NCBI GenBank assembly: GCA_049999805.1 | Contig: JBNGIO010005679.1 | Span: forward strand, 62,001-89,457 | Reading direction: 5' to 3' | Length of the DNA: 27,457 nt | Source of the DNA: Folioceros fuciformis | Taxonomy: Eukaryota | In this document: positions 252 to 27,457 of the stretch, piece by piece | How positions within the stretch are numbered: position 1 is the stretch's first letter | Layout of the letters: the number at the start of each line of letters is the position of its first letter | Translations under genes and position numbers: made by a program | Notes under the pieces: model-generated | What the model was told of the DNA's origin: nothing | Databases searched by the model: none | The model's input: only the letters and a program-made list of their open reading frames with translations

Positions 252-1275
252 TTTCGTTACTTAGCCTAGCCCATTTTTTTTGGCTGCTCTGTTACGCCGG
301 CCTGGCTTCATTTCCGTTTGAGACATACCCGGCTTTTCATTCAGAGCTCGGAGTCCTCTACTCCACACTTCCAGGCGCAGTCTAGCTCCTCTGCTCTTCA
401 GACCTTCTTGTGAATTACTCTTCTCTATCAAGGTATGAGGCTTGCCTAGGCAGCAGTGCTCTTATACATTTTGCCACTTGCACATGGCATGAGCTCTGTA
501 ACGGAATACATGCTACCAGGGTCTCTCTCTCGCTGTAGTTCAACTGCATTTTCACAGTGGGAGTCCAGGGCTATGATGCTTGCCAGACCAGCAATCAACA
601 CACCCACGCATGCAAGGCCCACCTGGTACACGAAATTACAAGCTCCGCACTGAGCAAAGAGGCACATAGTCGTTCGTTGCTGAATGCGTTAGTACAGGAC
701 AACATAGCCCACCATCTACAAACATGAAGCGGAGCCATGCTATTAAAATTGGCATCGCTATTACAGAAGCAAAGCCTCTATAACAGGCTGTCCAAGACCA
801 GTTCCTGCTAAGGACACCTGCTCTTCACATACATAGTCTACAACACTTCAATCTCACCACACAAATTCCATCTTCAGACCGTCTCGCGATTGTTTGATGA
901 TACTCCGCCGCACGGACCCCAGTGTCTTATTGCTTTGTATCAGACACACATGTGTGCATCGACTTCCTGTTGTAGTGATGTATAGGGAGAGGGCTAGCTG
1001 TTGCACGGAGCCATGGCTCTCTGGATCACGTACCAACTGACTCTCACGAAAGGCAGGGCAGAACCCAGTTGGTGGGTGCAACATACTGTACATACATCTG
1101 CAAGGAATGGCGGCCTCTGCACGACGATGTCCTTCTGGGGACAGAGGTGCGGGGGTGGCCGGAAACATCAATGTCAGGACATGTGTCAGTTGGCGTGAAT
1201 TTTTAAGCACAGACCGCATCAGGAGGATTTGTGCCTGACCAGTCGTCTTTGCGAAGAAATTAGCGGCCTTCGTGG

Positions 1276-4062: not shown

Positions 4063-4150
4063 TCCAAGTGATGTGGAAAACTGTGACGAGGCGAGACCTC
4101 ACTCTTCAGGACATGACTCGCTAGTTTCCCATCAAACCCCCAAGCTGTAG
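3971..4150 (+). pseudogene. Out-of-frame remnant of the DYW domain C-terminal half of PPR gene 1
   Basis: The +1 frame reads ISNFKVCFVCRTAMTSISKAENQSTIL, matching the DYW consensus 'KNLRVCxDCHxxxKxISKxxxRxI'; CxxC at 3989-4000. Confidence 0.7.
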
Positions 4151-4592
4151 TCACAGCAAAACGAAAGGTGCTTCAGGTCCCCTTTACGAGGATGTGTGCA
4201 GCGAGTATGAAGGTTGTCCATTCCGGTGGAGATTCCAGACTCGAATTCGAATGTATGCAAATCTGGGCCTTTTAGAGCTCTAGGCTCAGCACGTGCTCCT
4301 GGCAGGCAATGGCTTTGTGGACCGATGTAATTGAGTCACGAACACAGCAACGGTGTCCCTAGTGGGCATAATTTCTGTGTACCCAAATCTTTCGGAAGAA
4401 GTCCTGGTCAGCCGACTGAAGGACCCAATCGTTGGGAACCAACGATGGCTCAACGGGGAGCAGTTACAGTCTGGTGATGTAAGACCAACAGATTCGCCTA
4501 AATGCTCGAGTTTCAGGAGGTCGTTAGAGTGGCTTCATAGATTGTGTAAGTCAGCTTGGGTGGATCCAAAGCTGGCGGCTGCTCTGGGGGAT

Positions 4593-7500
4593 ATGCAAAT
4601 GGCTTGTGCTACCCCTACATCGAGCTGGGCCGTGCCGGATGCTCTGGACACTCGCAAGTCTGCAGGTTATGAAAGTGGTGTGACTGCTCAAACCGTGCGC
4701 AAGCTATGTCAGCAGGAGCAGCTCAGTACGACTGTCGAAGCTCTGGGTGTTCTGGTCCATACAGACTGTCCTGTTTCCAAATCACTGTTTCATACTGTAC
4801 TCAGAGAATGTCTGTCCAGTAAGAATCTGCATCTCGGCCGTCGTGTTCATGCGTTTACCGTGAAGAAGGGCTATGAGTCGGACACGTTCTTGTGCAACCA
4901 CATTCTGCGAATGTATACTTCGCATGCCAGGTTACTGGAAGCCATGGATGTGTTCGCTGTGGCTGCCAAGCCAGATGCTTTAACGTGGTGTGCAATCATA
5001 TCTGCGCATGTTAAACAGGGACAAGATAGGAGGGCGATCCAACTATACCAAAGGATGCGTGAGTCCAGTGTGAAACCAGATGGTCATGTATTCGCAGCAG
5101 CTCTTCAGGCTTGTGCAAGGGGAGTAGATTTGAAATCTGGGCAGCAGGTGCATGCTGATGTTGTGGATAGTGGCATTGAGCCTGATTTGTTTGTATGTAG
5201 CGGCTTGGTGGATATGTATGCTAAGTGTGGCAGCTTGCAGGAAGCTCAGAAAGTGTTTGATGCGCTTTCTCAGAAAAGTGTGGTAACGTGGAGTGCCATG
5301 ATTGCAGGGTATGCCCAACAGGGCATGGGGCAGCAGGCTCTCCACCTGTACAAGGCTATGCGGGAGGAAGGTATTGTTACACCAAATTCTGTGACCTTTG
5401 TGTCTGTCCTACAGGCATGCGCAAGTATGGGCACGGTCGCTTTGGAGACGGGGAAGCAGCTTCATGTAGAAATTAGAGAGCAAGGACTTCAAGCTGATGT
5501 GGTCGTGGCCAATAGCTTGGTGAATATGTATGCAAAGTGTGGCAGCGTACCGGCGGCTGAGGTTGTGTTTAACGGGCTTCCTCATAAAGATGTGGTGTCA
5601 TGGAACATAATGATTGCTGGATATTCCCAGAAAGGCATGGGGCCCGAAGCTCTCCATCTCCTCATGGCTATGGAGGAAGAAGGCACAGCTGCACCCAATC
5701 CTGTGACGTTTGTGTCACTCCTGCAGGCATGTGCATGCATGGGGACCCTTGCTTTGGAGAAGGGAAAGAAGCTTCACACACAGATAAGAGAACGAGGGCT
5801 TCATACCGATGTCTTTGTGGCCAATAGCTTGGTGAACATGTATGCAAAGTGTGGGAGCCTAGATGATGCTCAGGGAGTGTTTGACAGACTTGGTCATAAG
5901 ACTGTGGTGACTTGGAATGCCATGATAGCCGCGTATTCCAGGCAGGGAAGGGGGCATGAGGCTCTGCGCCTGTACACTACTATGCAAGAGGAAGGCATTT
6001 TTGCACCTGATTCAGTGACTTTTGTGTGCCTCCTGCAGGCGTGTGCGAGTCTGGGCACCTCTGGTTTGGAGGAAGGAAAGCAGCTTCATGCACGAATCAG
6101 AGAACTGGGACTCCAAGCTGATGTGTTTGTAGGCAGTAGTTTGGTAAGCATGTATGCAAAGTGTGGCACCCTGAAAGATGCTCGTGCGGCGTTCGATGGA
6201 CTTGGTGACAAGAATGTGGTGACATGGAATGCCATGATATCCGGATACTCGCAGCAGGGAGTGGGACTGGAGGCTCTTGATCTCTACAGGTGCATGCAAG
6301 AAGAAGGTGTTGCGCCGGATTCTGTGACATTTATGTCCCTCTTGCAGGCGTGTGCTAGTGTGGGCATCGTTGCATTGCAGAAGGGGAAGCAGGTTCATGC
6401 ACAGATCAGAGAGCAAGGACTTCAATCTGATGTGGTTATTGCGAACAGCGTGGTGAACATGTATGCAAAGTGTGGAAGCTTGGAGGATGCTCATGGTGTG
6501 TTTAATGGACTTCCTCAGAAAGATGTAGTGACTTGGAATGCTCTGATAGCAGGGTATTCCCAGAAGGGGATGGGGCTGGAAGCTCTTCATCTCCTCAGTG
6601 CTATGGAGAAAGAAGGCATGGCTGCACCCAATTCTGTGACATTTCTCTCTCTACTGCAGGCATGTGCAAGTGTGGGCACCCTGGCGTTGGAGAAGGGGAG
6701 GCAACTTCATGCACAAATTAGAGAACAAGGTTTTCAGGCTGATGTATTCGTCGCCAACAGCTTGGTGAACATGTATGCAAAATGTGGTAGCCTGGAGGAT
6801 GCTCAACGCATGTTTGACGGGCTTACTCAGAAAGACGTGGTGACGTGGAATGCCATGATAGCAGGATATTCCCAGCGGGGCATGGGCCATGAAGCCCTTC
6901 GGCTTTGTGGGGCCATGCAAGAAGGCTTGACTGCACCCGATTCTGTGACATTTGTGTGTCTCCTGCAGGCATGTGCATCGTTGGGGAGCCTAGCTTTGGA
7001 GAAGGGAAAGCAGATTCATGCGCAAATAAGAGGACAAGAACTTGAAGGTGATGTGACCGTTGCTAGCAGTCTATTACACATGTATGCAAAGTGCGGCAGC
7101 TTGGAGGATGCTTGGGACATATTTGAAGGGCTTAATGAAAAAAATGTGGTAGTGTGGAGCGCCATGATAGCAGGGTACTCGCAGCAGGGCATGGGGCAGG
7201 AAGCTCTTGGTCTTTACAGGGCTATGCAAGAAGAAGGGATTGTTGCACTGGATCCTGTGATCTTTGTGTGTCTTCTTCAGGCGTGTGCGAGTGTGGCAGC
7301 TTTGTATGTGGGTAGGCAGCTACATTCACAGATTGAAGATCAGGGGCTTCAAGCTGACGCCGCGATAGGAAGCAGTCTGATAAACATGTACGCAAAGTCA
7401 GGAAGCATGGTTGACGCACAGCAGGTATTTGACGCTTTGCCGGACAGAGATGTTGTCATCTGGGGTGCACTGATTGCTGGATACGCCCGTCAAGGAGACA

Positions 7501-8126
7501 GTGAGAAGGTTTTTGACCTGGTGCTCAGAATGAGAAACGATGGCATACTCCCAGACACCATCACATTTGTCAACATACTCACAGTATGCAGTCACAGAGG
7601 TCTAGTGACCGAGGGTCGAGAATACTTTGAGGCTATGAGCAGAGTGTATGGCATCACTCCTACAGCGGACCACTACACATGCATGGTGGATCTCCTGGGA
7701 CGTGCTGGACAACTGGACGAGGCTTTAGCCGTAGCAAGGGCAATACCTGTGGTGCCTGATGCTGCAGTCTGGCACTCTCTTTTGGGTGCTTGTCAGAAAT
7801 GGTGCAACGTGGAGGCGGGACGCCACGCTTTCGATGAAGCAGTGAAACTCGACAAGGAGGATTCTGCAGCCTATGTCTTGATGTCGAACATATATACTGG
7901 TGCGCAGATGTGGGAGCAGGCCCGGGAAATACAGCTGAAGAGACAAGGCAACGGGGCAAGGAAGCAGCCAGGACAGAGCTGGTGGACCGACATGGACGGT
8001 CTGGTGCATAGTTTTTTGGTTGGGGATAAGAAGCATCCTTGCAGCGACGCGAGGATAAAACAGTTGTTCCTCAAAATGAATAAAGATTGTTTTGAGCCAC
8101 ACCTGGACTCCCGAGCGGCCGGATGA
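4593..8126 (+). CDS. PLS-class PPR protein (29 PLS motifs, E1, E2, WW-type PG box, DYW truncated by frameshift)
   Basis: The frame is open from at least 4353 (GTG) but the first in-frame ATG is 4593. Nine L-S-P triplets, L2, S2, E1, E2 and KQPGQSWWTDMDGLVHSFLVGDKKHP. The N-terminus is homologous to the neighbouring PPR genes; the true start is uncertain. Confidence 0.92.
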   Translation: MQMACATPTSSWAVPDALDTRKSAGYESGVTAQTVRKLCQQEQLSTTVEALGVLVHTDCPVSKSLFHTVLRECLSSKNLHLGRRVHAFTVKKGYESDTFLCNHILRMYTSHARLLEAMDVFAVAAKPDALTWCAIISAHVKQGQDRRAIQLYQRMRESSVKPDGHVFAAALQACARGVDLKSGQQVHADVVDSGIEPDLFVCSGLVDMYAKCGSLQEAQKVFDALSQKSVVTWSAMIAGYAQQGMGQQALHLYKAMREEGIVTPNSVTFVSVLQACASMGTVALETGKQLHVEIREQGLQADVVVANSLVNMYAKCGSVPAAEVVFNGLPHKDVVSWNIMIAGYSQKGMGPEALHLLMAMEEEGTAAPNPVTFVSLLQACACMGTLALEKGKKLHTQIRERGLHTDVFVANSLVNMYAKCGSLDDAQGVFDRLGHKTVVTWNAMIAAYSRQGRGHEALRLYTTMQEEGIFAPDSVTFVCLLQACASLGTSGLEEGKQLHARIRELGLQADVFVGSSLVSMYAKCGTLKDARAAFDGLGDKNVVTWNAMISGYSQQGVGLEALDLYRCMQEEGVAPDSVTFMSLLQACASVGIVALQKGKQVHAQIREQGLQSDVVIANSVVNMYAKCGSLEDAHGVFNGLPQKDVVTWNALIAGYSQKGMGLEALHLLSAMEKEGMAAPNSVTFLSLLQACASVGTLALEKGRQLHAQIREQGFQADVFVANSLVNMYAKCGSLEDAQRMFDGLTQKDVVTWNAMIAGYSQRGMGHEALRLCGAMQEGLTAPDSVTFVCLLQACASLGSLALEKGKQIHAQIRGQELEGDVTVASSLLHMYAKCGSLEDAWDIFEGLNEKNVVVWSAMIAGYSQQGMGQEALGLYRAMQEEGIVALDPVIFVCLLQACASVAALYVGRQLHSQIEDQGLQADAAIGSSLINMYAKSGSMVDAQQVFDALPDRDVVIWGALIAGYARQGDSEKVFDLVLRMRNDGILPDTITFVNILTVCSHRGLVTEGREYFEAMSRVYGITPTADHYTCMVDLLGRAGQLDEALAVARAIPVVPDAAVWHSLLGACQKWCNVEAGRHAFDEAVKLDKEDSAAYVLMSNIYTGAQMWEQAREIQLKRQGNGARKQPGQSWWTDMDGLVHSFLVGDKKHPCSDARIKQLFLKMNKDCFEPHLDSRAAG

Positions 8127-8704
8127 TGGCATGGAAGATTTCGTGTGTGGGCACAGCCGATATCTTCGGCCTTACCAAGCAGTCAGGTTAGAAAAACTGA
8201 GCAGGAAGGGACTCCTCTGAGAAAGGACCAAGTAGATGTGTTTGTAGTGTCGGATCTCGCGTCTTCTATTGGCACAGGAGACTTTTCACAGACGTTCAAA
8301 ACCTCAGCGAAAAGCTGCGGCAAATGTTCTCATTCGATGTCATCGTACTCGTAGCGTTGATCAGCTCTACCCGACATATTCTTGCTGTGAGCGGTAATTG
8401 ATTGCAACCGTTGCGAGAGTTGCACGATTCTTCCTGTATTTCCTCTACTTCCAATATTGAATTGCCAATCGCTGGACTTGAAGATGACATGTTGAGTGGT
8501 CATGGCTAGATCCATGTCTCACAGGTAGTAGTCATCTCTGCGCCTCTTGCATTACCAGGCTCAAAACGTGCTCCTGCATGCCATGGCTGTGCGGAGGGTA
8601 ACGGGAAATGTCCGAAGAGCCTCCGCTCAGTCAACTTCAAGGATTGGAAACAGTGAGGCTTCGAGGTCCAGTACCTGGCATAGAAAGCTAGCTCCTTCAA
8701 ACCT

Positions 8705-11614
8705 ATGTGTCACTGGAGAGCGGTCTTCCAGCGAGGAGCGTGGCCGGGAGCGTTCTTGTGGAAACGGTTCTTCACACCAGGGTGGGGTAACAGACCGTCC
8801 GCCTGGGGCTTGCCGGATACTTGGGACCCTCGCAGGTGTGTAGGATGCGAAAGTGGCGTAACTTCTGAAAGCATAAACAAACTATGCCACCAGGGGCAGC
8901 TCAGGGAAGCAGTTGAGTCTCTGGGATTTCTGGTGCACAGAGACCGTCGGGTCTCGAGATCTCTCTTTTTCACGGTCCTGAAAGAGTGTGTTGCTGAGAA
9001 GGATCTACATCTTGGTCGCATTGTCCATGCTCTAGCCGTGAAGGAGGGTTATGGGTCGGACACGTTCTTGTGCACCCACATCCTGCGAATGTATGCTTCT
9101 CACTCCACGTTGAAAGAAGCGATGACTGTGTTCACCATGGTTGCTACACCAGATGCCTTCATGTGGTCTGCTGTGATATCTGCCTATGTGAAACATGGAG
9201 AAGATAAGCAAGCCATACGACTGTATCATCGGATGTGCAGGTCAGGCGTGCAGCCAGATGGCCATGTTTTTGTAGCAGCCCTTCAAGCTTGTGCTAGGGG
9301 ATTAGACTTGAAATCTGGGCAACAGGTGCATGCTGATGTTTTGGCTTGTGGCGTTGAACCTGATGAGTTTGTCTCTGGTTGCTTGGTGGACATGTATGCG
9401 AAATGTGGCAGCTTGGAAGACGCTAAAAGAGTGTTTGACGGGCTCCCACACAAAAGTGTGGTGACGTGGAGTTCCATGATAACAGGGTATGCGCAGCAGG
9501 GCATGGGAAGGGAAGCCCTTCATCTCTACAGGGTTATGCAGGGAGAGGGAATTGTTAAACCGAATTCTGTGATCTTTGTGTCCCTCCTCCAGGCATGTGC
9601 TAGTCTGGGGAGACCTGGTTTGGACGAGGGGAAGCGTCTTCATGCACAAATTAGGGAACACGGGCTTGATGCTGACTTGTTTGTAGGCAGCAGTACGGTA
9701 AACATGTATGCAAAGTGTGGCAGCCTAATAGATGCTCGGAGCGTGTTTGATGGGCTTGATCAGAAAAATGTGGTGACGTGGAATGCCATGCTAGCGGGGT
9801 ATTCCCAGCAGGGCATGGAGCACGAAGCCCTTGATCTCTACAGAGCTATGGAAGAGGAAGGTGTCGTCGTGCCTGTTTCTCTGACATTTGTGTCACTCCT
9901 GCAGGCATGTGCTAAATTGGGCAGCCCGGCTTTAGAGATAGGCAAACACCTTCATGCACAAATTAGACAACGGGGCATTCATGCTGACGTGGTTGTAGCG
10001 AACAGCTTGGTAAATATGTATGCGAAGTGCGGCAGCCCAATGGATGCTCAGGGCGTATTTGATGGACTTGGTCAGAAAGATGTGGTGACATGGAACGCCA
10101 TGATAGGAGGATATGTGAATAAAGGCATGTTGCTTGAAGCGTTTCAAGCCCTTAGTGTCATGAAACAAGGAGGCTTGGCTGCACCCAATTCAGTCACATT
10201 TATGAGTCTCCTCCAGGCGTGTGCAAGAGTAGGCACCCCGGCTTTGAACAAGGGGAAACAGATTCATGAACAAATTAGGGAAAGAGGGCTTCAAGCTAAT
10301 GTCTTTGTAGCCAACAGCTTAATAAACATGTACGCAAAATGCGGCAGCGTACATGATGCTGAGGGTATATTCCATGCATTGCCCGAGAAAGATGTGGCAA
10401 CGTGGAACGCCATGATAGCAGGCTATTCTCAACATGGGATGGGGCAGGAAGCCCTTGGTCTTTACAGGGCTATGCAAGATGGAACTGCTGCACCCGATTC
10501 AGTAACATTTGTATGTCTTCTGCAGGCATGTGCACAATTGGGTACGCCAGGTTTGGAGATGGGAAAGCAGCTACATACGCAAATTAGAGGGCAAGGACTA
10601 GATGCTGATTTGTCAGTAGCCAGCAGCTTGTTGAACATGTATGCTAAATGTGGCAGCTTGGAGAGTGCTCGGGGTTTGTTTGACAAACTCTGTGAAAAGA
10701 ATGTGGTGACGTGGAGTGCCATGATTGCAGGATATTCCCAGCAGGACATGGGACAGGAAGCGCTTCATCTATACAGAACTATGCAAGACGAAGGAATTGT
10801 TGCACTCGATTCTGTTACATTTGTTTGCCTCCTACAGGCATGTGCCAGTGTGGCAGCTTTGCACCTAGGAAGGCAGCTTCATGCACATATAAAAGTTCAG
10901 AAGCTGCAAGGCGAGCCTATCATGCGCAACAGTTTGATAAACATGTACGCAAAATCGGGGAGCATGCTTGATGCACAGCAGGTGTTCGATGAATTGCCAG
11001 AAAGAGATGTTGTCACATGGACTGCACTGATTGCAGGATACACTAGTCAAGGGGAAAGCAACGAGGTATTTGACTTGTTTCTCAGGATGAGAGAAGATGG
11101 CATCGAACCTGATGGCATCACGTTCCTTAGTGTTCTAACAGCATGCAGTCATAAGGGCCTAGTGAACAAAGCGGGAGAGTACTTTGAAGCCATGATAAAA
11201 AATTATCGCATCACTCCCACGCCAGAGCACTACACATGCATGGTAGATCTCCTGGGTCGAGCAGGGCAGTTGGACGAGGCACTAGCATTGATAAGGACGA
11301 TGCCTGTACAGCCTGATGCTGCAGTCTGGCATGCTCTTCTCGGTGCTTGTCAAAAGTGGAACAACGTGGAGGTGGGACGCCATGCATTTCATGAAGCAGT
11401 CAAGCTCGACTTGAAAGATGGCGTAGCATATGTGTTGATGTCCAACATATATAGTGGTGTCCAGATGTGGGAACAGTCACAGGAGATGAAATTGAGGAGA
11501 ACAAGAAACAAGGCATGGAAGCAGCCAGGCCAGAGCTGGTGGACAGACATGGACGGGCTCGTTCATAGTTTTCTGGTTGGGGATAAGAATGGTTGTGTGG
11601 GTGGGAGATATTGA
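8705..11614 (+). CDS. PLS-class PPR protein (23 PLS motifs, E1, E2, WW-type PG box, truncated right after it), 969 aa
   Basis: Intronless ATG ORF with an Arg/Trp-rich N-terminus (possible transit peptide), seven L-S-P triplets, L2, S2, E1, E2, ending KQPGQSWWTDMDGLVHSFLVGDKNGCVGGRY*. Confidence 0.93.
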   Translation: MCHWRAVFQRGAWPGAFLWKRFFTPGWGNRPSAWGLPDTWDPRRCVGCESGVTSESINKLCHQGQLREAVESLGFLVHRDRRVSRSLFFTVLKECVAEKDLHLGRIVHALAVKEGYGSDTFLCTHILRMYASHSTLKEAMTVFTMVATPDAFMWSAVISAYVKHGEDKQAIRLYHRMCRSGVQPDGHVFVAALQACARGLDLKSGQQVHADVLACGVEPDEFVSGCLVDMYAKCGSLEDAKRVFDGLPHKSVVTWSSMITGYAQQGMGREALHLYRVMQGEGIVKPNSVIFVSLLQACASLGRPGLDEGKRLHAQIREHGLDADLFVGSSTVNMYAKCGSLIDARSVFDGLDQKNVVTWNAMLAGYSQQGMEHEALDLYRAMEEEGVVVPVSLTFVSLLQACAKLGSPALEIGKHLHAQIRQRGIHADVVVANSLVNMYAKCGSPMDAQGVFDGLGQKDVVTWNAMIGGYVNKGMLLEAFQALSVMKQGGLAAPNSVTFMSLLQACARVGTPALNKGKQIHEQIRERGLQANVFVANSLINMYAKCGSVHDAEGIFHALPEKDVATWNAMIAGYSQHGMGQEALGLYRAMQDGTAAPDSVTFVCLLQACAQLGTPGLEMGKQLHTQIRGQGLDADLSVASSLLNMYAKCGSLESARGLFDKLCEKNVVTWSAMIAGYSQQDMGQEALHLYRTMQDEGIVALDSVTFVCLLQACASVAALHLGRQLHAHIKVQKLQGEPIMRNSLINMYAKSGSMLDAQQVFDELPERDVVTWTALIAGYTSQGESNEVFDLFLRMREDGIEPDGITFLSVLTACSHKGLVNKAGEYFEAMIKNYRITPTPEHYTCMVDLLGRAGQLDEALALIRTMPVQPDAAVWHALLGACQKWNNVEVGRHAFHEAVKLDLKDGVAYVLMSNIYSGVQMWEQSQEMKLRRTRNKAWKQPGQSWWTDMDGLVHSFLVGDKNGCVGGRY

Positions 11615-12317
11615 AGCAGTGGATGAGTAATGAAGTATTCTGGGCATTTCATCCACCGCAGGCTGCATTGTTTTCAAACATGCACACAGTTTTCTGAGTA
11701 GGGTTTGTGAGAGGCTTTTGGTCAGGCATCGAAGAGTTTGCTGATTGAACAACGGAATAGTTTTCTGGCTGAGGATTAGAATAGCTTTCTCGATGAAGTT
11801 TAACTGTGAAATTCACACCTAGAAGGCTTCACCACTGATCACAAGGGTTGAAGGACATTGTGTGCAACTGAATTAAAGAAAACTTTGGCACAGACGTGCG
11901 AATTTGCGCTCGGTGGTGCATTTGGTGGTAAACGGCGTCTAAATTTCCTGAGAAGGCGGCCCTTCCGGGAATGAAGCATCAGCGGCCTTCGGCCGAACCT
12001 GGAACTACTTGGTTTGGCCCCCGCAACTGCCGCAACCGTTTTACCCATCGAACTGGCCTCACAAGCAGCTTTCACGGGGCTGGGAGCGTGCGGCGAGAAA
12101 TGTGGCTGGATTCCCAGCCCTGAGCACCAAGGCTAACTCCAGGCGGGTTCGCGAGGCGCCACGATCAGAAGCCGCATCGTGGCCCTGCGGCTGTATTTGA
12201 TGGAGCCTGCATGATGCTTTTGGCATCGGATTCTGGTTGTCATTCAAAACTCGGTGTGCGAGAACTCCACCGTCAGCTCGGAGTTCCTGCAGGTGTCGGA
12301 ACTGGTCGCTCAGAGCC

Positions 12318-14074
12318 ATGGGCCCGACTTCCGGGTGTGGCACAATCAATGCTGCAGCTGCAGCATTGGGCTTGTGGGTGTGTGTCGTTTCAGGCTGCAA
12401 TGCTGGTGCTGCAGCAGGAATCTTTGGTGCAGCAGAGTACCAGGAGGCACTTTCCAAGACCATCCTCTTCTACGAGGGCCAGCGATCTGGGCCGCTGCCC
12501 ACGTCCCAGAGATTGACGTGGAGGGGGGATTCTGGCTTGACTGACGGATCGTCATCCAACGTAGATTTGGTGGGAGGATACTATGATGCTGGCGACAATG
12601 TCAAGTTCGGCCTGCCCATGGCCTTCACCATCACGCTGCTGTCGTGGACTGTGATCGAGAAGGGCAAGGAGCTGGCTGCAGCGGGAGAGATGACGCACGC
12701 ACAAGACGCCATCCGTTGGGGGACTGACTACCTGCTCAAAGCTCACACGGGACCGAGCGAGCTGTACGTTCAGGTGGCGGACCCGACCAAGGATCATGCG
12801 TGCTGGCAGAGGCCCGAGGACATGCAGACGGACCGCACTGCCTACAAAATTGACGCCACCAATCCAGGCTCCGACGCTGCTGCGGAAACGGCTGCCGCTC
12901 TGGCTGCGGCCTCCATTGTGTTCCAGGCCCGTGACGCGCAGTACTCAGCTACGCTTTTAGCACATGCCAATGAGCTCTTCGCTTTCGCGGACGAGCACAG
13001 AGCTGCATACAGCGATGGGTCGCTCAAGTCACAAGTGTGCCCATTCTACTGCTCTTACTCGGGGTTCAAGGATGAGCTGTTGTGGGGAGCAGCCTGGCTG
13101 TACAAGGCATCCAGGGACGACAAGTACCTGCAATACCTGGTGGACAACAGCGAGGCGCTGGGCGGGGCCACCACCTCCGCCCCCACTCTCAGCTGGGATA
13201 ACAAATATGCGGGCGCTCAAGTCCTGGCTGCACAATTCTTCCTCGCGGGCAAGGCCGATGGGCTGCAGGGCTACAAGCAGCAAGCCGATGCGTTCGTGTG
13301 CATCATCATGCCAGGCGTCTCTGCAGCCAAATATACTCCTGGTACGCAATGCTCAACTTCACACATCTATTTGAACGCTGTTCCCTAGGCTTGCCATGCG
13401 GAAGATTGTATGAAAGGTCACTGACAGATCATCGCTTGCATTGATGGTGAACCTTAAGTGATGTGCTGCAGGCGGGCTCTTCTACTTCGCGGCAGGCAGC
13501 AACCTACAGTACGTGACCGCATCTTCCTTCCTCCTCCTCGTCTACGCCAAGTACCTGGACTCATCGAAGCAGGCGGTCACCTGTGGCACCACGACCATCA
13601 CTCCCGCCCAGCTTTGTGCCCAGGCCAAAACCCAGGTACACTTGGGATATCTCCTCTGGGTTCTCCATCTGTCTCCAATGAATTTCAGATTGTTCGTTTC
13701 GCCTGAGGTTCCGACTCCTGATCGCGTATCGCAATTCATGATGCCTGCTGCAGGTGGACTACATTCTGGGGGACAATCCTCACAGCATGTCGTACATGGT
13801 CGGATTTGGATCCAGCTTCCCACAGCGGGTTCACCATCGGGCGGCTTCAGTGCCTTGCATCAAGACTCACCCTGCCGAGATCGCCTGCTCTGACAGCTTC
13901 TCCTACTACAAGGCCAGCACCGCCGACCCCAATCGGCTGACAGGGGGCATTGTGGGAGGACCCGACGAGGCCGATGCTTATGGCGATGACCGCAGCAACT
14001 ACGGGCAGGCTGAGCCCACCACTTACATCAACGCTGGCATGGTGGGCCTCTTGGCACACCTTGGTGCAGCCTGA
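12318..14074 (+). CDS. Glycoside hydrolase family 9 endo-1,4-beta-glucanase (class B type, no CBM), 502 aa; exons 12318-13341, 13472-13635, 13754-14074
   Basis: Motifs FYEGQRSG, GGYYDAGDNVKFGLPM (catalytic Asp pair), DELLWGAAWL, VHHR and AEPTTYINA (catalytic Glu). GT-AG introns 13342-13471 and 13636-13753 join in frame (YTP-GGL; KTQ-VDYILG). Hydrophobic N-terminus. Confidence 0.95.
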
Positions 14075-14801: not shown

Positions 14802-15946
14802 TTAACGGAACGCAGCGTGAAGCAATGCAGCCCCAGCAGGTACAGAGGCGCGTGCCCTGGGAGATAAGGGTCGGCTATCATCGTACAGGTTTACACAGTT
14901 TTTCACCACGCGGTTTGATCTCTGGAGGTTATGGTGAGGGCTAGCTGAAGGTCCATTAAGGATCCATTCCATGATGGGAGATGACATTGGATCCCTTTCG
15001 TCATCTTTCGGTGTCGAGCAGTTTTCCGCACCATTGTGAGGAGGGGATGCGAGCAAATTCATGACATTCATGCTCTCAAATAAAGAGCGACAGCAGCACG
15101 GCTGTGATGTCTGTCCTGAATCTGGACCCAAAAGACCAATGCTGTTATTACTTGGAGCCCTGCGGCAGCAGCTGGAACTGGTCGAAGCTGCTCTACTGCT
15201 ATCTAGGTGGGAAGTGCTGATTATGTCCAGGTCAGAGATGCCAAGTTCAGGGTAGGCGGGACCGAGGTCGAGAGCAGGGAAATCGTCCACGTTCAAGTTG
15301 TAGGGGGGAAGTTCCGGCATCAGATTGTCCTTCCATTCGGGTGACTTGTCCGATTCCACCTCCTTCAGTCGTTTGACCTGGAGGGCACTTGGACGACCTC
15401 ATGTTAGGCAGAGCCAATCGAGCATTCCAACAAGGTCACAGGGTGCATCAAAATAATACAAGTGCGAAACGCTGACAGCATAGAGGTCAAAGAAAGGGAC
15501 AAGCATCAATTTCCTTCAATGTCGACATCCAAGAATGATGAATCCCGTGGGAGGCATCAGGACGACAAGAAACAAACGGAATTTACCTCCTCGGCGAGTT
15601 TCTGTTTCTCATCTAGCAACGCATTGTACTTGGCCTTGAAGGCGAGGTACTCAGCCTTGAGAAGCAGGAAGTCTTTCTCCAGCTGCTTCCCCTTCCATCT
15701 CGCGCGGCGGTTTTGGAACCAAATCGCCACCTGTCGCGGTTGCAAAGACAGCTCTCTGGCCAGCCGGAGCTTAGTTTCCTGCTCCAATCTGGGGCCCTGT
15801 GTGACGAAGTTGTGCTCCAACACCCGCACTTCCTTAGCCGTGAGCCTCCGCTTGGAGGTCTTACACTGCCCGGCCAATTCTTCCTCTCCAGCAAATCCAG
15901 CATCCACGGAGTCCGCCCCGGCGTGGCCACTCAAGTCCTCCGCCAT
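14802..15946 (-). CDS. Class I homeodomain-leucine zipper transcription factor, ~311 aa; exons 15946-15587 and 15377-14802
   Basis: KRRLT...LQPRQVAIWFQNRRARWKGKQLEKDF followed by a leucine zipper. Phase-0 intron 15586-15378 (GTAAAT...CTAAC...CAG) joins LAEE to VKRLKE. The 5' end and the far C-terminus are less certain. Confidence 0.9.
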
Positions 15947-16503
15947 GGACACAGGACTCCCGGGACGGCATTGACGCCGCCGCCAGCGGAGGCCGCTTAA
16001 GAGGAGTCATGCCGCGGCCCCTGAAGCTGGCTGTGAGCTCACAGGCCAACAGCGCAATCTAAATCTGGATTGCCATGCAAACCCGCGGTCAAAGCATCAG
16101 GACCGGGCTGCTCGCGGGCTCCCGTCCCGCGGAGAGAGAATAGCGACTGGTAGCCTAACCCCCTATCAGACAACCCTAAAAACACCATGTCCATGTGGCA
16201 CACGGATAACGAACGCGGAAACACCAATCGCCTGACCCCAAGCCACGACCTCCACGACCCTCATGGCTGCTGCCAGTAACGCCGGAACTCCTCATCTCCC
16301 CGGAGAGCAAAACGTATTGGCCTGTTTCCGCCATCTGCCATTTCCTTTGCTCGTAACACTGCGGGCTCGGTCTCGGAATGGACTCTTCTCAATAAAAAGC
16401 TTATAAAAAGCTTAAAACATAGTATTAGAGCCAGATTTCGATCCCGATCCTAGGACTCCATGTACCATAGAAGCTTTCCGGGAAGGTAACTGGTGTGACT
16501 TGT

Positions 16504-16645
16504 TGTCCCCAAGCGTCCACCTCATGTCCCCAAGCGTCTACCTTGTGTCCCCAAGCGTCCATCTTGTGTCCCCAAGCGTCCATCTTGTNNNNNNNNNNCC
16601 AAGCGTCCATCTTGTGTCCCCAAGCGTCCATCTTGTGTCCCCAAG
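16504..16645. repeat. 21-bp minisatellite (TGTCCCCAAGCGTCCATCTTG)n, about 7 visible full or partial units, spanning an assembly gap at 16589-16598
   Basis: Head-to-tail copies start at 16504, 16525, 16546, 16567, (gap), 16615 and 16636, with no unique spacers. Confidence 0.95.
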
Positions 16646-18683: not shown

Positions 18684-21600
18684 CATTGCCGACTAGGTCA
18701 TGTCAATTTCCAACTTTTTTCTTCTCCTACTAGAAGTGACAATTACAAAGAACCTCTCAATTTTTCATAAGATGGTTCCACATTAGGGAAGCTTGTTAGC
18801 TTAGCAAAGCTTATTCCTTTAAGGACCTTTCAAGGATAAGTTCTTGACGAGAGCAAAAGGCCTTCTCCATACCATTCACAATGACCTATGTGGGCAATGT
18901 CCACAACCTCTTTTAGCGGCGTTGACTATTTCATTACTTTTATTGACAAGTGGAGACATTATTGTATAGTGTTCGCCTTAACTTGAAATAAAAGTGAAGC
19001 ATTTTCTTGCTTTTAGTAATAGAGCTAAATCACTACAATTGAGAGGAAGACTAAAAGCAAAAGTTCATATTCTTCTTATTGACAATGGAGGTGAATATAT
19101 CAGCAATGCATTTATTTCATTCTTTGCTCCAAAAGACATTCAACATCAGTTTACGATTCCGTGTACATCTGCACAGATTTCATTTGCTAAATGAAAAAAT
19201 AGGACTTTGCAAGAGGCCGCTTTAGCATCATGGAGTTCTTAAGAGAATCCTAAGACCCGTTGATTGTATAGGTGCCACTATTTCTCCATTTTATTCTGAT
19301 GTTACCTCGAGAGTAGCACTATTTGGGAGAACGTACCACCTATAAAAAGGCCATAGAAGGACTAGAGTCCCTCTTCTGGAAGGAGGCCATAGATTCAGAA
19401 TATACCTCTCTCACACAAAACAACACTTGGAAACTGATCACCTTACCCCCGGCAGGAAGCCTATAGCTTGTAAGTGGGTCTCCAAGAAGATATTGAATGT
19501 AGACGGCACTGTGGGGAGATATAAGGCAAGTCTTGTAGCCAGGGATATAGTCAAGTCCAAGGCTTGGACTATAACAAGACCTTTTCCTGTTGTCAAGCCT
19601 ACCTCTCTTAGGATCCTATTGCTATTGTTGCCCATTACAAATTATTGGTACAACACCTTGATGTGAAGACTTTCTCAATGACTTACTAGAGGAATACATC
19701 TACATGTGCCATAGGGCTTTGTTGTTGAAAAGGACAAGGTATGCAAGTTGTTGAAGACACTTTATGGCTTGAAATAATCCTCACATGCTTGGAATGAGGT
19801 ATTTCAGTAGTTCCTTAAAGAAATTGGGTTCCTTAAAGAAATTGGGTTCATTTACATGGACAGAGACACATACAAATGGTTTGTGTGTACATATTATATG
19901 AGGGAGCAGACTTTCTAATCCTAGCTATTCATGATGTACATGATAACATCTTGTTTAGTACTCCTCTAACTCTAACCCTGATGAACAAGATTAAGAAGGT
20001 TTTACATATTAGATTTGAGATGAATGATCTAGGACAACTCACTTTTCCCTTAGATGTCCAATTCCACTTCAATGGGAAGGATGGCAATATAAACACACAT
20101 CAAGGGCACTTTGTACATCAGCTTTTGCATAGGTTTAACATGGCAGACGCTAGACTTATGTATATCTCCATGTGTGTTAGTGAGAAATTGTCCTTAGAGC
20201 CGTGCCCTAGCATAGAGGCTGAAAAACAAGAAATGGCTTCAAAGCCTTATAAGCAAGCTGTGGGATCTCTCATTTATCTATCTAATTGGACAAGGCTAGA
20301 TATTGCAAATTGGACAAGGCTAGATATTGCAAGAGCAGTAGGAACTGTTAGTCAATTTTAAGAGAATCCTAGTCTTGCTCATTAAACAACTATAAATTTT
20401 TACCTATCTCAAGGGATCTCCTAGGAAAGGATTGCATTTTGAAAAGAGTCCTACAAGCCTTTAGCTCACAATATTGTTTGCCTATCTTCAACAGCGGTTG
20501 AGTATGGAGCAACAACACAAGCTTCCGAGGAAATTTTATAGATTTGAAGTCTTCTCAATGGTATGAAACAGTTTTTTTTTTTTTCCGCGAAAAAAGAATT
20601 CTGATTATGATTGGCAGATGCCTCCCACTACAATACAAAGGGAAAAAACCTGCTAACGTATGTACATAGATCAAGCACCAAAAGAGAGGGGGGGAACTGG
20701 CCTTGAGTTCAAAACTCAAGACAAGGTGCTCAGAGAACGCTCCCCTACACAATGGTACTCGCGAACTGCCAAAAACACTTATACTCACACCTCGAAGTCT
20801 CCCAAGGACCCTAAGGGCTCACCTTCCCCAGGGGCACGAATGGTTCCAACGCGTATCTTTCCCAGGCACTAGGAATCCCGCCATCCTCCAGTCTTTCTGC
20901 TTAAATTATTTTTGACGGGATTGTTCCAAAGCTTCTGCTGCAATCAACGAATGCTCCCATATGCGCCACAACAAAGCTTTCAATGAAGCTGATTCCTGTC
21001 CTCCATAGACCATCGCGGATCAGTTGACCCAGAGATGAAAAAGGCAAGAAGACCACAGTAAGCCCCACCATTGTGTTTTAAGGAGAGGTTTGCCTGAGGT
21101 TACGTCTAGCCCAAATAAGGCTGATTGTGTCGTGATCTTGAGGTTAGCACCAGGAAAAGTCAAACCGAGCCACTTGCCCACCTCCCTCCAGATCTCTTGG
21201 GCAAAGCTACAATGAAAGAACATGTGTTGACTCTTGTTCGGGGCCCCAGCGGTGCACAGTCGACACACATCCACCCCCGTTGCAGCTAAATCCCATCCCA
21301 ACGATCCACATTAGGCAAACACACTTGAAAAAAACACAAGACCGTAGACCTGACCTTGGGGGGGATTCCTGCGGACTTCCATAGAAGTTTGATGGCTTCC
21401 CTTTGTCGCCGTCCAGCTAACTGCAATCGGGGAGCCATTGGTTGTCTTTGCTTGATTTTCTGCGCTCACAACAACCAAAGGAACAAGTCCGCCGTTGGGA
21501 AGTTGAAGAAAGACCGAGAGATAGCCTTCTTGCACCCTGGACGCATGGGCCACTTGTAGAGATCTAGTTTGACGGTCAAAGCCTAGTTCTCACCTAGTTG

Positions 21601-21900
21601 GAACCAGCACTGAACCTTTGCTTTATCGGAGGTTTGTGGCCCAATTGGGCGTTCGTCAGCAAAGAATCTTGTATTTCATGCCCGTTCTATGGTATGATAA
21701 CCAATTTGCTATTGCCTTATCAAAGAGTGTTGCCTATTCTAAACATATCGAAAATTATCATCACTTTCTAAGGCAAGTTGTTGAGAAAAAGAAGGTAAAT
21801 ATTCCTTATGTGCCCACTAGTGAAAACACTGCTAATCTTCTCACAAGAGCTTTACCCAAGCTAGTTCATGAGAAGCACACACTAGCAATAGGTGTAGTAG
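18684..21900 (+). pseudogene. Copia pol pseudogene (GAG-pre-integrase, integrase, RT, RNase H), interrupted by a LINE
   Basis: HCRLGHVNF (18684), IHNDLCG (18874), YFITFID, DNGGEY, KNRTLQE, PGRKPIACKWV, RYKASLVA, LYGLK, PYKQAVGSLIYL, STAVEY (~20490) and WYDNQFAI...SKHI...ENTANLLTRAL (21690-21853); many stops and frameshifts. Confidence 0.93.
20572..21680 (-). mobile_element. 5'-truncated L1-type LINE (ORF2 zf-RVT end, 3' UTR, poly(A)) inserted antisense into Copia RNase H
   Basis: T13 at 20572-20584. Minus-strand LLWKSAGIPPKVR...CLPNVDR and CRLCTAGAPNKSQHMFFHCSFAQEIW (zf-RVT). More CpG-rich than the flanking Copia DNA. The 5' boundary is approximate. Confidence 0.85.
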
Positions 21901-22197
21901 AAATTCCAACAGCAGAGTTAAGTTGCCCACTAGTCTCTATCCGTTCACTAACTAAGTGGGAGCTTTTTGTTCAAACATGGAGTCTTAATCTCTCTTCTCT
22001 TCATGTCATCCTTTGCTATCCTTTCCTTGCAAGCTTTACCTAGGCTAGTTCTTGAGAAGCACACACTAGCATCAAGAGTAGTAGAAATTCCATCAGCAAA
22101 GTTCAAAGGCATTGCCCACTAGTCTCTATCCTTTCACTAACTAAGTGGGAGCTTTGTGTTGATACATAGAGTCTTAATCTCTCCTATCCATGTCATC
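21848..22197 (+). repeat. Imperfect tandem duplication (~184-bp period) of RNase H end, PPT-like motif and TGTT-start segment
   Basis: 21848-22010 vs 22032-22197 share GAGAAGCACACACTAGCA, TTGCCCACTAGTCTCTATCC, CACTAACTAAGTGGGAGCTTT and GAGTCTTAATCTCTC. Confidence 0.9.
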
Positions 22198-22240
22198 ATG
22201 GAGAGGAGAGATTAAGACTCTATGTATCAACACAAAGCTC
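22149..22240. repeat. Near-perfect inverted repeat: 44-bp arms, 4-nt loop
   Basis: 22149-22192 is the reverse complement of 22197-22240 at 43/44 positions; loop TCAT. Confidence 0.97.
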
Positions 22241-22573
22241 ATATTATCATAAGCGGTTCAGTACCATGATTTCGGAAGAAGTCACATGCCCATCATTTCT
22301 TTGTTTACTAGCCCCTGGTCGTCAAAGTCAACCGGATGTGGAGTCCCCATGAACTTATGAAGATTAATGGAGGCGAGGATAATCTTACGTGACTTTCCTC
22401 AACGCGGGTAAACAGCTTGAAGAAGTTGCCCGTGGATGAAGACCAGAAGGAAGACATCGGGTACCAAGAAAGCAAGCTTGAGTGCATCAACACTTGTCAT
22501 TGTTGAAGGAGTGGATGGCGAGTAGAGGGTCGTCTCGTTGAGAACTCAGTACCTCAACCTCACTAAGTGGGAG

Positions 22574-22800
22574 TAAAGAAAACTGAAGCCGGAGTTACTG
22601 TTCAATTATGGTAGTTCAGTTCGTTACCGAAACTGCAAGTCGGTTACCTTTCCACTTGTATAAACGACTCTCCTGAAACAAAGAAGTGTGTTCAGTACAT
22701 GCCCTTTCCTTATTCCTCGTGTGCTCACCGCTCTGGCGCTTAGATCACTTTGCTTGCCTTGATGTCCACGGTCAGATAAGTCCCGCCTGAAAGTTCTTTA
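22574..22800 (+). repeat. 3' LTR (227 bp), preceded by PPT AAGTGGGAG at 22565-22573
   Basis: Starts TAAAGAA and ends TTCTTTA (7-bp terminal inverted repeat); followed by CCCAC. Confidence 0.9.
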
Positions 22801-23799
22801 CCCACAAACTTCAAATCTGGATTCAGTGTTTTTCACTGCAGACTGACCACAATGTGGACTTGAGATCCTTCCCATGGTTGCTGATCATGAATGAGACCAT
22901 ATGGTTGCAGGGAAGGGTGCTAACCTTGTTACCTGTTGAAGGCATCAGATTGAGCAGACGGTTTCCGTCTTTCTGTCAGATGACGCCTGGTTTGGTTCGC
23001 ACTTTGAGTCAACTGGCATCTCATCCAACACTGAAGGGGACCACACCTCATTAAACCATCTTGCAGGATCGAAACCAGTGCCCACGCAACCAGAACGTCA
23101 TTCTGAAGGCACTCCCTAACAGACTCGTAACAGAGAACGTAGCTTGCGGTACAGCCTGAAGTTTAATTACCTACTGGTATGGCATTGTAGCGAGCAAGGA
23201 CCCAGGGTGTCAAGATTGTTGATTGTTTCCTCAACACCTCCATGCCTCTTTGCATTGCAGGTCTCGGTGCGTATTCACTGCATGTGGGGAGTCGGTCATG
23301 TACCGATCGGCAGCTACCAGGGACTCACGGACGAAGCGCTGCGATTGAATGATGAGAAACATGTTCCCGACAAGGAATGCAAAGATTACAAAGACTGGTG
23401 TACGATCTGGCAGACAGCGGTGAGAAAAGCATGTCGATTGCGTATGTACCCTAGAAAACGCGCAGCAGGGCATGTCACGGGTTGAACGTCACACTCCAGG
23501 TGTTACTTCCTCGAGACTCTCGTCAGTGCTGGCAGTGAACTCCAATGCCGATGTCACAGCCACATTTGGAAGCATCGCGAAGCTCTAAACCACCATATCG
23601 TCTATCGGGTTTAGGCTTGGTCATCCCGAGCCCCCTTGCTTTGGGGTTGTGGTGCTGGGGCCTTTTTAGGCCGCTCTGGTGTTTTCGCCGTTTCCAGCAG
23701 CTCCAGCCCGCCTCGTCGGAGCTTGGGCTGTTTCTAGTAGCCGCCTTGGCCTTGTCTCCTCATTTTGGGTAATTTTCTTGCTTCTTCCTACTGTATTCC

Positions 23800-24130
23800 A
23801 CATTTGCAACTTGAAATGGGTGTGAATTTCCGCTTCGGGTGTCTGATCCCTGTGAATGCGGCAATTCCCTAAATCAAAGCAACAGCGGCCTTTACGGGGA
23901 ATTCCAAGCGAACTGTTGTGTATGTAGTTGGGTCCTCGCCACTGCCGCAACCGTTTTGCCCGTTCAACAGAGTTCAAACAGCATTAATTCACGGGGCTGG
24001 GAGGGAGAGGCGAGAAATGTGGCCCGTGCAATATTGCAGCCCTGAGCCCTGAGCCAAACTTGGGTTGCATTCGCAGAGCCTTGCTCAGTGTCATATCCCC
24101 GGAGCTGTATTCAATGGGAGCCCGCAGAAA
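23800..24130 (+). repeat. Duplicated copy of the GH9 upstream/promoter region (about 11855-12210)
   Basis: Colinear shared blocks CAGCGGCCTT, ACTGCCGCAACCGTTTT, TTCACGGGGCTGGGAG, GGCGAGAAATGTGGC, CAGCCCTGAGC and GCTGTATT. Confidence 0.85.
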
Positions 24131-24133
24131 TGA

Positions 24134-24416
24134 ACCTGGAGGGCCGGCCATTCCGGCTTGACCGACTGAGGGTTCCCTCCTCTAGCCTCGGTCTGGTGGG
24201 ATGATACTACGACTCTGGCGACGTCGTCAAGTTCGGCCTGCCCATGGCCTTCACCATCACGCTACTGTCGTGGACGGTGATGGAAATGGGCAAGCAGCTG
24301 GCTGCAGCGGGAGAGATGACGCACGGATAAGACGCCATCCCTTGGGGGACTGACTACCTCGTCAAAGCTCACACAGGGCTAACCGAGTTTCACGTTCAAG
24401 TGGCGGATCCGATCAA
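24134..24416 (+). pseudogene. GH9 endoglucanase pseudogene fragment (paralog of about 12516-12790)
   Basis: Reads [71 protein letters not shown]; stops at 24202 and 24328; start codon, signal peptide and 3' part deleted. Confidence 0.93.
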
Positions 24417-24419
24417 TCG

Positions 24420-24477
24420 TAGATGCATCATGTCCTGGACGATCGATGCATCATGTCCTAGATGATCGATGCATCTA
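24420..24477. repeat. 23-bp tandem repeat (~2.4 units) with palindromic GATGCATC cores at the pseudogene breakpoint
   Basis: GATGCATC at 24422, 24445 and 24468; the ends TAGATGCATC / GATGCATCTA are inverted. Confidence 0.85.
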
Positions 24478-25494
24478 AAGCCTACCTGTGGACAAACTTC
24501 CCATCTGGACTGCATGTTTATTTCAGTCCAGGATAGCGACAATCGACACTTGAAATCAATTCCGTGGCAGGTTTGAACACTGAAACCTCTATTGCCCCTT
24601 CAGGAACCAGGCTGAGAGAAATCTTCTTCATCCCTGGAACCCTTCAAGAAGTGTATGCCTTGGCATCCCTGCGGAAAATTGTTAGCTGCACTGCCGATGG
24701 TTGCGGCGGCCAGGCTCAGTCTTATGTTGCAAGGTAGCTTCCAATTTGCAATTTGGCTGTGTTTCCTACTTACCGTCTAGGACCACGAATCAGTTGACTC
24801 AGAAAACATGACACACGCGTGTCCTATCACGATTGCAAACAGCCTGAGTCGAGCGAAGGAAGTGGCCAGGGTGCTGTCTCCGAGTTTGATGGAACTTTCA
24901 CATCCAGGCCAGACAACGAAACCGACAAGCCTGTCGGTCGTTCTTATCTGCGCATGCAGCCTTTCGCATCTGGCAATCTTGCTTGTGTCACCTTCCTGGT
25001 AGACGCGGAGAAGCGAGTGCTCTATCGACCGAGCGCAATCGGAGCAGCCGTTCCACGATACAAAGCGCAGCCTACCGACTCGAGAGACAATCGTTGGCTT
25101 TCGGCCGATTGGCAGCAACAACGAGAAAGGCACGTACACTTGGGCAGCTTGGTAAAGAGCACGGAAGTGGCCAGATCTGGAGACGGGCACGAGGAAAACA
25201 GACAGGAAATGATTTGAATAAAATGATCACTTTCTAGAGAGAGCCATAAAGACGCGGATAAGAGAGCCCAGATGGATATAAGACACGATAGCGGTAGGCA
25301 GTGGACAGATTCTGGATTTACATGGACTCCGGTGATCCTGAGGACTCAGAGGCTACTTTGGTATTCCACCGGATGCGTGCCAGAAGCCAGGCTCCTGGCA
25401 CGCTCTTATTGTGCCCATGTCAAGCTACGTGCAATCAAGACATGGCTCCCCTCTCCTCCCCGTCTCTCCCATGCCCATCTGCTGCGGGAGCAGA

Positions 25495-25762
25495 TCACTT
25501 GCAGTCGCACTTGCTAGCATCGTCGTTGCACTTGCTGCAGTCAGGGTCGCCAGACTTGGCGGCCAGAACGTTCTCGCTGCAACCCACAGATTACAAAGGT
25601 CAAGCTAGCATTCGTGAAGTCACTCATCTCCAGGACAGAATCGGCTGCAAAATTGACGAAGGCACTCAGCAAGCAACAGAGAGGCGGCCCGTACATCCAA
25701 CCAAGCAGGACAGAAAGAGGAGGAGCGGAAAGCGCAAGGGCTTACAACACGACGGAGGCCAT
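25495..25762 (-). CDS. Small spliced gene for a 32-aa Cys-tailed, metallothionein-like peptide; exons 25762-25746 and 25576-25495
   Basis: ATG GCC TCC GTC GTG TT|GTAAGC...TTGCAG|C GAG AAC...TGC AAG TGA gives MASVVFENVLAAKSGDPDCSKCNDDASKCDCK. 169-nt intron, strong GC3 bias, upstream TATA box and CT-rich leader. Confidence 0.7.
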
Positions 25763-25869
25763 TCCGAATTGGAAGGGATAGAAGAGCCGAGAGCAGAGAG
25801 CGTGCGGGGAGATAACGGAGAGCGAGACAACTGGGATGGCTTGCTCATTTGCTTCGCCTTCAGCACGCA

Positions 25870-25875
25870 TTTATA
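25870..25875 (-). promoter_or_regulatory. TATA box of the small Cys-peptide gene
   Basis: GCTATAAAT on the minus strand, ~110 nt upstream of ATG 25762, followed by a pyrimidine-rich leader. Confidence 0.65.
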
Positions 25876-27457
25876 GCCCGGGGAAGGCGGAAATCGCCGC
25901 GGGCAAGCTAAACCCGGCCATGGAATCTGAGCCGGTGGTGAGTCAAAGTTGGCAATGGGGTGTGTCCCGGTCGTGGAGGTAGCTGGGGGCCTCGTGGACG
26001 AAGGACGCCAGCACAAGCTCCATGGCTCGGCCCCACTCGCTGCGTGCAGTGGTGGCGCCGCCCCTCACAATCGCGGAATGCGCCAATTTAGCCGTGCGAT
26101 TGATCGGGTGTGGCTCTAACGTTGCGTGCCCGACAAACTCCGAGATGCGCAAATTTTGTGTCCTACGTCCCGGCCCGGCCACTTTGTTGTAGCGCAGCTT
26201 GCTCCATCTGGAGCCATGGCCGTCGGCTACGGGGCGTACATTTGTCTGTATGTCGAAGATCTCACATACAGCTTCTCCACCTCTCAGGGGCCAGAGTTTC
26301 AGACGGCTACTGTACGATTGTTCTGTGGCTTCCACTCCAAGCATCCATATCGGACAGAGAAAAATCTCCCTTCTCGTTTGGCTGCTTCTAGGACATGCAG
26401 TACAGGCTGAGTGACGTGATGACCACAGTCTGCTTTGCTTGAAATTTCTTCTCGTGATCCAGATCAGCTTGCAGACATTACCTGCAGCTCTCAATATCTC
26501 TCAGGCTAAACACCCAAGAGCGTCAGAGGAGTCCTCCGATCCTTACGTCAAAGGCTGACTCACATCAGCCCCATCCACATCCAACGCTCTTCACCTGTAC
26601 GTGCAACATGAGTTGGAATTTGCAGTCTGAACCAGCACTGGGAATTTCAAACACGATGCTTTTCGTAAACACGATGCCGTCACCCTGCTTTTCGTAAACC
26701 GGAGGCTTTCAGGAGCATCCTTAATGTTGGCACCCATGGCAAGCTTTGTGCCAGAGTTTTGGACTGACATGAGGAACACCTTTCCACGTACGTACTGGAC
26801 GACAATGCGGACTGAGACAAAGGTGTACCTTCACTTCACTAAGCTCCTTCCGCTGGAAAGGGTGCAAAAGCAGTGACTTCCACGGCAAGATTTGCAAGAC
26901 ACTTGGAGACTGTCAGGAATGCACCGTGCGTCCATTGACAACACACTCCGTGGAAGAGTGGGGTCGGTAGAGTTAGCCAAGTTGGAGGCCTGCTGACGGC
27001 ACTCCACCAAGTTCTTCGTGCCGCCACTCGCCCTAGCTAAAGGGTTACCGTAAGGTGATTCCCAGAAACTTCCTAGAAACTTCCCAGATTCCCAATACCG
27101 CACTGACGGTTGATGCTTGCAAGCGACCTAGCGGACACGAAATGAATCGCCCACGTGAAGTGCGGGCCAGCTACTTGTTGCGCACACAAGCCGAGCAGAG
27201 GCAGGTATTGCATGACGTACGTGTCATTGCTCAAATTTGGCAAGCTCGGATCAGGTTCCTGGCTGTTAAGAGCAACTAGTCTATAAGGGTGGGTTCGCAT
27301 GCATGCCCAACCCGAACCTTGAAACCAGGGTGAAACTAGTGCGGCATTCGCATGTGGTGTCCAGGAACCTTAAAAAACGACCGACATCGTGCCGGTCCAC
27401 TTCGAAGTCACCGCCTCGTGTGAGTTTCAAACGTGGCGTGAACGGTTTTGGCTTGGG

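Follow-up and report, generated by a model that had tools for sequence, protein, structure and literature searches.

The locus examined here raises the question of whether a very short gene on the minus strand, encoding a peptide with four cysteines, is real and what its product might do. The window, that is, the whole analysed stretch of 27,457 nt, carries three PLS-type PPR genes in tandem on the plus strand (1264-11614); they have an E motif and open frames that stop a little past a PG-box-like PGQSWWTD motif, and the one scanned had no DYW match in Pfam. A GH9 endoglucanase gene (12201-14074, plus strand), an HD-Zip gene (14802-16006, minus strand) and a 21-nt tandem repeat that includes an N gap (16499-16645) follow, and a low-GC stretch (19346-22043) contains degraded remnants of retroelements (RVT_2, zf-RVT). 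This gene content is that of a land plant, probably a hornwort: SWWTD resembles the WW-type DYW signature of hornworts, although the literature consulted gave no confirmation that it is typical of them. A search with the GH9 protein, restricted to long proteins, did not narrow the clade, as liverwort, Closterium and angiosperm sequences were all 57-61% identical to it. An Rfam search of positions 22000-27457 returned 0 matches.

All elements of the microgene lie on the minus strand. A TATAAA motif (25870..25875), a candidate TATA box by sequence, is located 113 nt 5′ of the ATG, and a C/T-rich leader (25763..25845), spanned by a contig of run X1 and holding a putative start site, lies between them. 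The start ATG at 25762, in the context GGAATGGCC, opens a coding exon of 17 nt, i.e., five codons plus 2 nt (25746..25762). This exon is separated by a 169-nt phase-2 GT-AG intron (25577..25745), with the donor GTAAGC at 25745 and the end TTGCAG, from coding exon 2 (25495..25576), which encodes a VLA segment followed by a 17-residue core, DPD-C-x2-C-x6-C-x-C-K, and a TGA stop. A candidate poly(A) signal, AATAAG (25405..25410), is situated 84 nt 3′ of the stop. The original prediction had named these elements, and each was found where it had been placed; a recount of the in-frame product returned the same 32 aa (~3.3 kDa, as estimated from length) and the same G/C-ending share, 26 of the 31 sense codons after the ATG. 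Further upstream, a block at 25930..26020 on the minus strand is 84% identical over 91 nt to the paralogue at C6379:697041 (blastn E 1e-23 among six 600-nt promoters) and, judging by this match, is probably a promoter element.

The predicted splice junction was recovered exactly. One X1 contig of 500 nt joins 25576 to 25746 with 0 mismatches, skipping 169 nt with CT..AC ends, in agreement with the GT-AG intron on the minus strand. It is the sole joint listed in X1, and the depth of the intron bin is 0. X1 is presumed, not recorded, to be RNA; a skip that matches the intron exactly would be difficult to account for in another way, and introns are present in each of the six genomic copies found. 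The alternative acceptors, an AG within the intron at 25645, which the original prediction had given as an example that would refute the model, and another at 25605, are not used in the X1 contigs, which tend to drop rare variants. X1 contigs over the locus extend from 23895 to 26152, and since they run on in this way and contigs cannot show ends, the start and poly(A) sites remain candidates. One of these contigs, of 1619 nt (23895-25513), continues without a gap past the stop and may be DNA, a read-through transcript or an extended 3′ UTR; a second one reaches 26152, 5′ of the TATA box. Run X2 gave 0 contigs. A single X3 contig (depth 3.7) with the spliced start of the closest paralogue was not counted as a second species, since a loose end common to it and X1 points to possible carry-over.

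The microgene belongs to a family of at least six genes, which the original prediction did not describe. DNA and protein searches of the genome (87 Mb, 7240 contigs) each returned six matches, namely the microgene and five paralogues. Four of the latter form a cluster of about 6 kb at C6379:690.9-697.2 kb, three on one strand and one on the opposite strand, and the fifth lies on C1886. The cluster is flanked by a CSN8-family gene (L007:4320-4955) and a DUF846 gene (L008:5359-5784), which would be useful synteny anchors for orthologues. A pattern of the last four codons plus stop found seven sites in the genome versus 0 for a control, and six of them are the family genes; the seventh KC[DN]CK-stop site (C6373) was set aside as chance, with no DPDC upstream.

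The six genes share one architecture. A TATA-like box, TATAAA in five genes and AATAAA in one, lies 110-130 nt upstream of the start codon, and all six begin with ATG GCC and have a GT donor after 17 coding nt. Intron position and phase (phase 2) are common to all, with lengths of 97-169 nt; for the paralogues the acceptor is a prediction, and a second acceptor is in frame in three of them. The products, 32-35 aa long, all end in C-x2-C-x6-C-x-C-K-stop. Intron identity is 44-57% in 14 of the 15 pairs, and the 51-nt (17-codon) core is 80-100% identical. The N-terminus is variable and the core conserved, with a sharp boundary between them; the VLA segment is invariant in all six paralogous copies. 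With about seven synonymous sites and non-independent pairs, pS exceeds pN in 12 of the 15 pairs, equals it in two, and one pair is identical; between the microgene and its five paralogues pS is 0.29-0.51 and pN 0.02-0.14. The variable columns of the family alignment, counted by codon position (3, 5, 5), show no third-position excess. In the closest paralogue AATAAA lies 77 nt after the stop, and its 3′ UTR is 73% identical to that of the microgene over 100 nt; no poly(A)-type signal was found near the stop in the other four genes. The microgene is thus a real, spliced, two-exon gene that forms a family and is conserved in sequence; the translation, location, ligand and role of the four-Cys peptide are what we infer below.

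To estimate chance expectation, the window was scanned for short TATA-ATG-GT-AG models, and one model, the microgene, was returned by a scan written with the answer known. When 60 Markov copies were generated from the window, four gave a model with four or more Cys and none gave the CxxC-x5-8-CxC pattern. The third-position G/C bias of the microgene is significant against the PPR baseline (p=0.50-0.55; P 0.0001-0.0007) and not significant against the GH9/HD-Zip exons (p=0.72; P=0.10). GC3 is 84-90% across all six family genes.

Outside this genome, relatives are few. An HMM built from the six exon-2 peptides matched two proteins at E<=0.001 among 1.84 billion representatives, P0003 and P0004, unnamed singletons on Logan contigs of 15 and 23 kb, and an alignment search again returned these two alone among 115 candidates. 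Their N-termini were probably mis-called through introns. The four Cys and the terminal Lys are present in each of them, P0003 having one extra residue between the Cys pairs. Four Cys, three Asp, one Pro and two Lys are invariant in all eight sequences, two of them from outside the genome, so that the conservation of the cysteines on which the original prediction depended is borne out; none of the three findings that it had named as refuting came about. The protein collections searched are poor in tiny spliced plant genes, and the true range of the family may therefore be wider. A word-indexed search of proteins that started from a 40-codon frame in one paralogue gave no candidate, a false negative given that P0003 falls within its length range. 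The ESM Atlas gave no usable match, and AlphaFold2 no usable model (mean pLDDT 58). The sole match among PDB sequences, antistasin, was dismissed (E=1). The one of 279 pattern matches to pass in a metagenome scan (L018) was rejected, as it has two Cys and is the antisense frame of a 437-aa bacterial ORF. In the literature no paper on the four-Cys family was found, the search covering neither subscription papers nor supplements, whose annotations could already list the genes; papers on metallothionein (MT) together with hornwort or Anthoceros, judged by title or abstract start, contained none on such peptides.

With moderate confidence, and reasoning from the sequence, we propose that the product is a putative cytosolic one-site thiolate buffer of Zn, Cu or Cd and of redox state, MT-like in action. 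The 32-35-aa peptide would be made in the cytosol and be unfolded without metal; its CxxC and CxC pairs would enclose a single Zn(II) or Cd(II) ion, or a small number of Cu(I) ions, and the invariant Asp residues could serve as additional ligands or as caps. Such a peptide would be an inexpensive and plentiful buffer of metal and of thiol redox state, an MT analogue cut down to one site, working beside a conventional MT and phytochelatin synthase and no member of types 1-4. Cys-X-X-Cys and Cys-X-Cys are named as MT motifs in PMC8070800, and MTs are described in PMC4101491 as binding each tetrahedral metal through four Cys and as having no fold without metal. A CxxC and a CxC within a 13-residue acidic stretch, in a peptide too short to fold alone, would suit the needs of a single tetrathiolate site, and four Cys would allow one divalent site per monomer. 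In P0003 the stretch between the Cys pairs accommodates an additional residue, as a metal-organised loop might, and the high GC3 of all six genes and the tandem cluster would fit an abundant, dosage-driven product.

Some of the features that define the MT superfamily are present: the 32-35-aa peptides are of low molecular weight and gene-encoded, and all eight sequences have Cys in CxC/CxxC at conserved positions. Small fungal MTs (Neurospora, Magnaporthe MMT1, basidiomycete 34-aa MTs) are similar in having 22-35 aa and one Cys domain, some of them with a Cys-free N-terminus as here; however, they have 6-8 Cys and multi-metal clusters, whereas the present peptides have four Cys in another spacing. 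The low Cys content (11-15% overall and 4 of 17 residues in the core, versus 20 of 61-62 in mammalian MT according to PMC4101491) argues against a one-site buffer, as do the lack of enrichment of metal-response motifs in the promoters, the presence of an ordinary MT and of a phytochelatin synthase gene (G000:C6030:32598-33335) in the genome, the absence of Pfam, PDB and Atlas support, and the signal-like character of four of the six N-termini. Furthermore, the core is conserved beyond what a ligand scaffold needs, and this, with the invariant VLA segment, suggests a partner or processing.

Processing is central to the main alternative, a rather unlikely one that the original prediction did not consider, in which a signal or leader of 15-18 residues would be cut before DPDC, freeing an exported or processed 17-residue ligand or defence peptide held by two cystine bonds. 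It was opened by the finding that the N-terminus, called spacer-like in the original prediction, has in four paralogues a hydrophobic character and little or no charge: by hydropathy only, four of the six N-termini reach a best 8-residue Kyte-Doolittle mean of 2.2-3.6 with 0-1 charged residues. Small residues just N-terminal to the core, the even number of core Cys and the sharp border between variable N-terminus and conserved core are also in its favour. However, the best mean is only 1.75 for the microgene and 1.10 for the paralogue nearest to it, where the stretch includes charged or polar residues, and 32 aa is very short for ER targeting. The paralogous cores are, moreover, nearly identical, and would not be diversifying as usual defence peptides do. 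Secreted cysteine-rich plant peptides (defensin-like, RALF) resemble the family in their hydrophobic N-terminus, even conserved Cys number and tandem genes, but have far longer precursors and a clear signal peptide, whereas two of the six genes here have no convincing hydrophobic core.

A less probable alternative is a regulatory micropeptide, whose core would serve as a switch on binding a metal, an oxidant or an Fe-S cluster and would work, as IRON MAN peptides do, through a protein partner. IRON MAN peptides are encoded by clustered small genes and combine a variable N-terminus with a short conserved acidic C-terminus; their motif is Asp-based and without four Cys, and no sequence match to the four-Cys family was found. 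The tandem cluster is consistent with this role, as is the invariance of the non-Cys residues and the terminal Lys-stop in all eight sequences. Promoter content adds a further point: GGAATC occurs 10 times in the six 600-nt promoters (in five of them) versus 2.5 expected from 139 kb of background. In the same promoters two-unit heat-shock-like motifs occur 6 times versus 2.2; both are post hoc counts after several motifs were tried, on paralogues that are not independent. MRE, CuRE, GTAC, ZDRE and IDE1 motifs, by consensus, are without enrichment there. An exact 20-nt inverted match was also observed between window 26300-26320 and the sequence (L008) upstream of C6379:694974, in promoters that are otherwise dissimilar. 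Against a regulatory role, the peptides have no likeness to any Pfam family, and the strong codon bias would fit a bulk product better.

More improbable still is a half-metallothionein by descent, if that term of the original prediction is taken literally: a type 1/2 MT from which the N-terminal domain and two of the C-terminal Cys have disappeared, the VLA segment being what is left of the spacer. The CxC-K-stop end and the hydrophobic VLA segment do resemble type 1/2 MT features, and phase-2 introns also occur, as read, in a conventional MT gene of the genome, L064 (G000:C6298, ~40010-40510, minus strand). This gene, one of six genome matches to the CxC[DN]PCxC pattern, encodes three Cys clusters, read as three exons, and served as the positive control: its last exon (exon 3) matched PF02068 at E 5.6e-6, which for this fragment is below the curated cut-off. 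By contrast, the exon-2 peptides of all six members matched 0 Pfam families at E<=10, PF01439 and PF02068 included, and P0003 and P0004 matched 0 at E<=1. The family profile gave no alignment with the last exon of L064 (hhalign probability 0.9%), and the repeated CxCGxxCxC unit of that gene is absent from the four-Cys peptides. For so short a sequence such homology tests are weak, and type 1/2 MTs were compared by description only. Elsewhere in the genome, a sub-cut-off PF01439 match (22.2 bits vs 23), one of only two candidates scored, was not MT-like on reading, so that type 1-3 MTs may still be present, and of 174 matches to CxCGxxCxC the 33 that were read included no MT.

Comparison with the MT types points the same way. 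Plant MT types 1-3 (PF01439) share with the family small size, gene encoding, CxC/CxxC motifs, a Cys-free hydrophobic stretch and multigene organisation. Types 1 and 2, however, have two Cys-rich domains around a spacer and plant MTs have masses of 4-14 kDa (both from PMC4382971), whereas all six gene models here have one 4-Cys cluster and the product has ~3.3 kDa and no HMM match. To the three-cluster plant type 4/Ec MT (PF02068) with its repeated CxCGxxCxC, the family has no detectable homology. On these sequence criteria the four-Cys peptides belong to none of the plant MT types 1-4, and an origin from MTs is not supported. The type-4/Ec-like L064 would itself be of note if the organism is a hornwort, given the statement in PMC8070800 that bryophytes appear to have type 1 MTs only.

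Least credible, and very improbable, is that the product is another frame or none. An 84-aa ORF from the ATG at 25848, in the +1 frame through the same junction, and a 68-aa in-frame extension from an ATG inside the TATA box are both open, and the X1 contig reaching 26152 extends upstream of both ATGs; a non-coding RNA would be the further variant. Against this, among the six family genes the two frames occur in the microgene only, all five paralogues lack an ATG from the TATA box to the start codon, a stop closes the +1 frame just after the junction in three of the five, and conservation follows the Cys frame.

Returning to the one-site metal buffer, a more far-reaching and less probable reading is that these metal-binding micropeptides form a plant class not yet described and without relation to MT types 1-4: a four-Cys, single-site minimal thionein of independent origin in one early-diverging lineage, probably the hornworts, with at least six genes that escaped annotation by their size. 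The peptide family itself is conserved and spliced and, across the collections searched, has no named relative. Should its members prove to be secreted disulfide peptides, they would represent a new small ligand family. If metal is bound by the four Cys, the family would mark the lower limit for an MT-like buffer and may offer a first handle on hornwort metal homeostasis, a subject on which, according to PMC8070800 (2021), there was no information.
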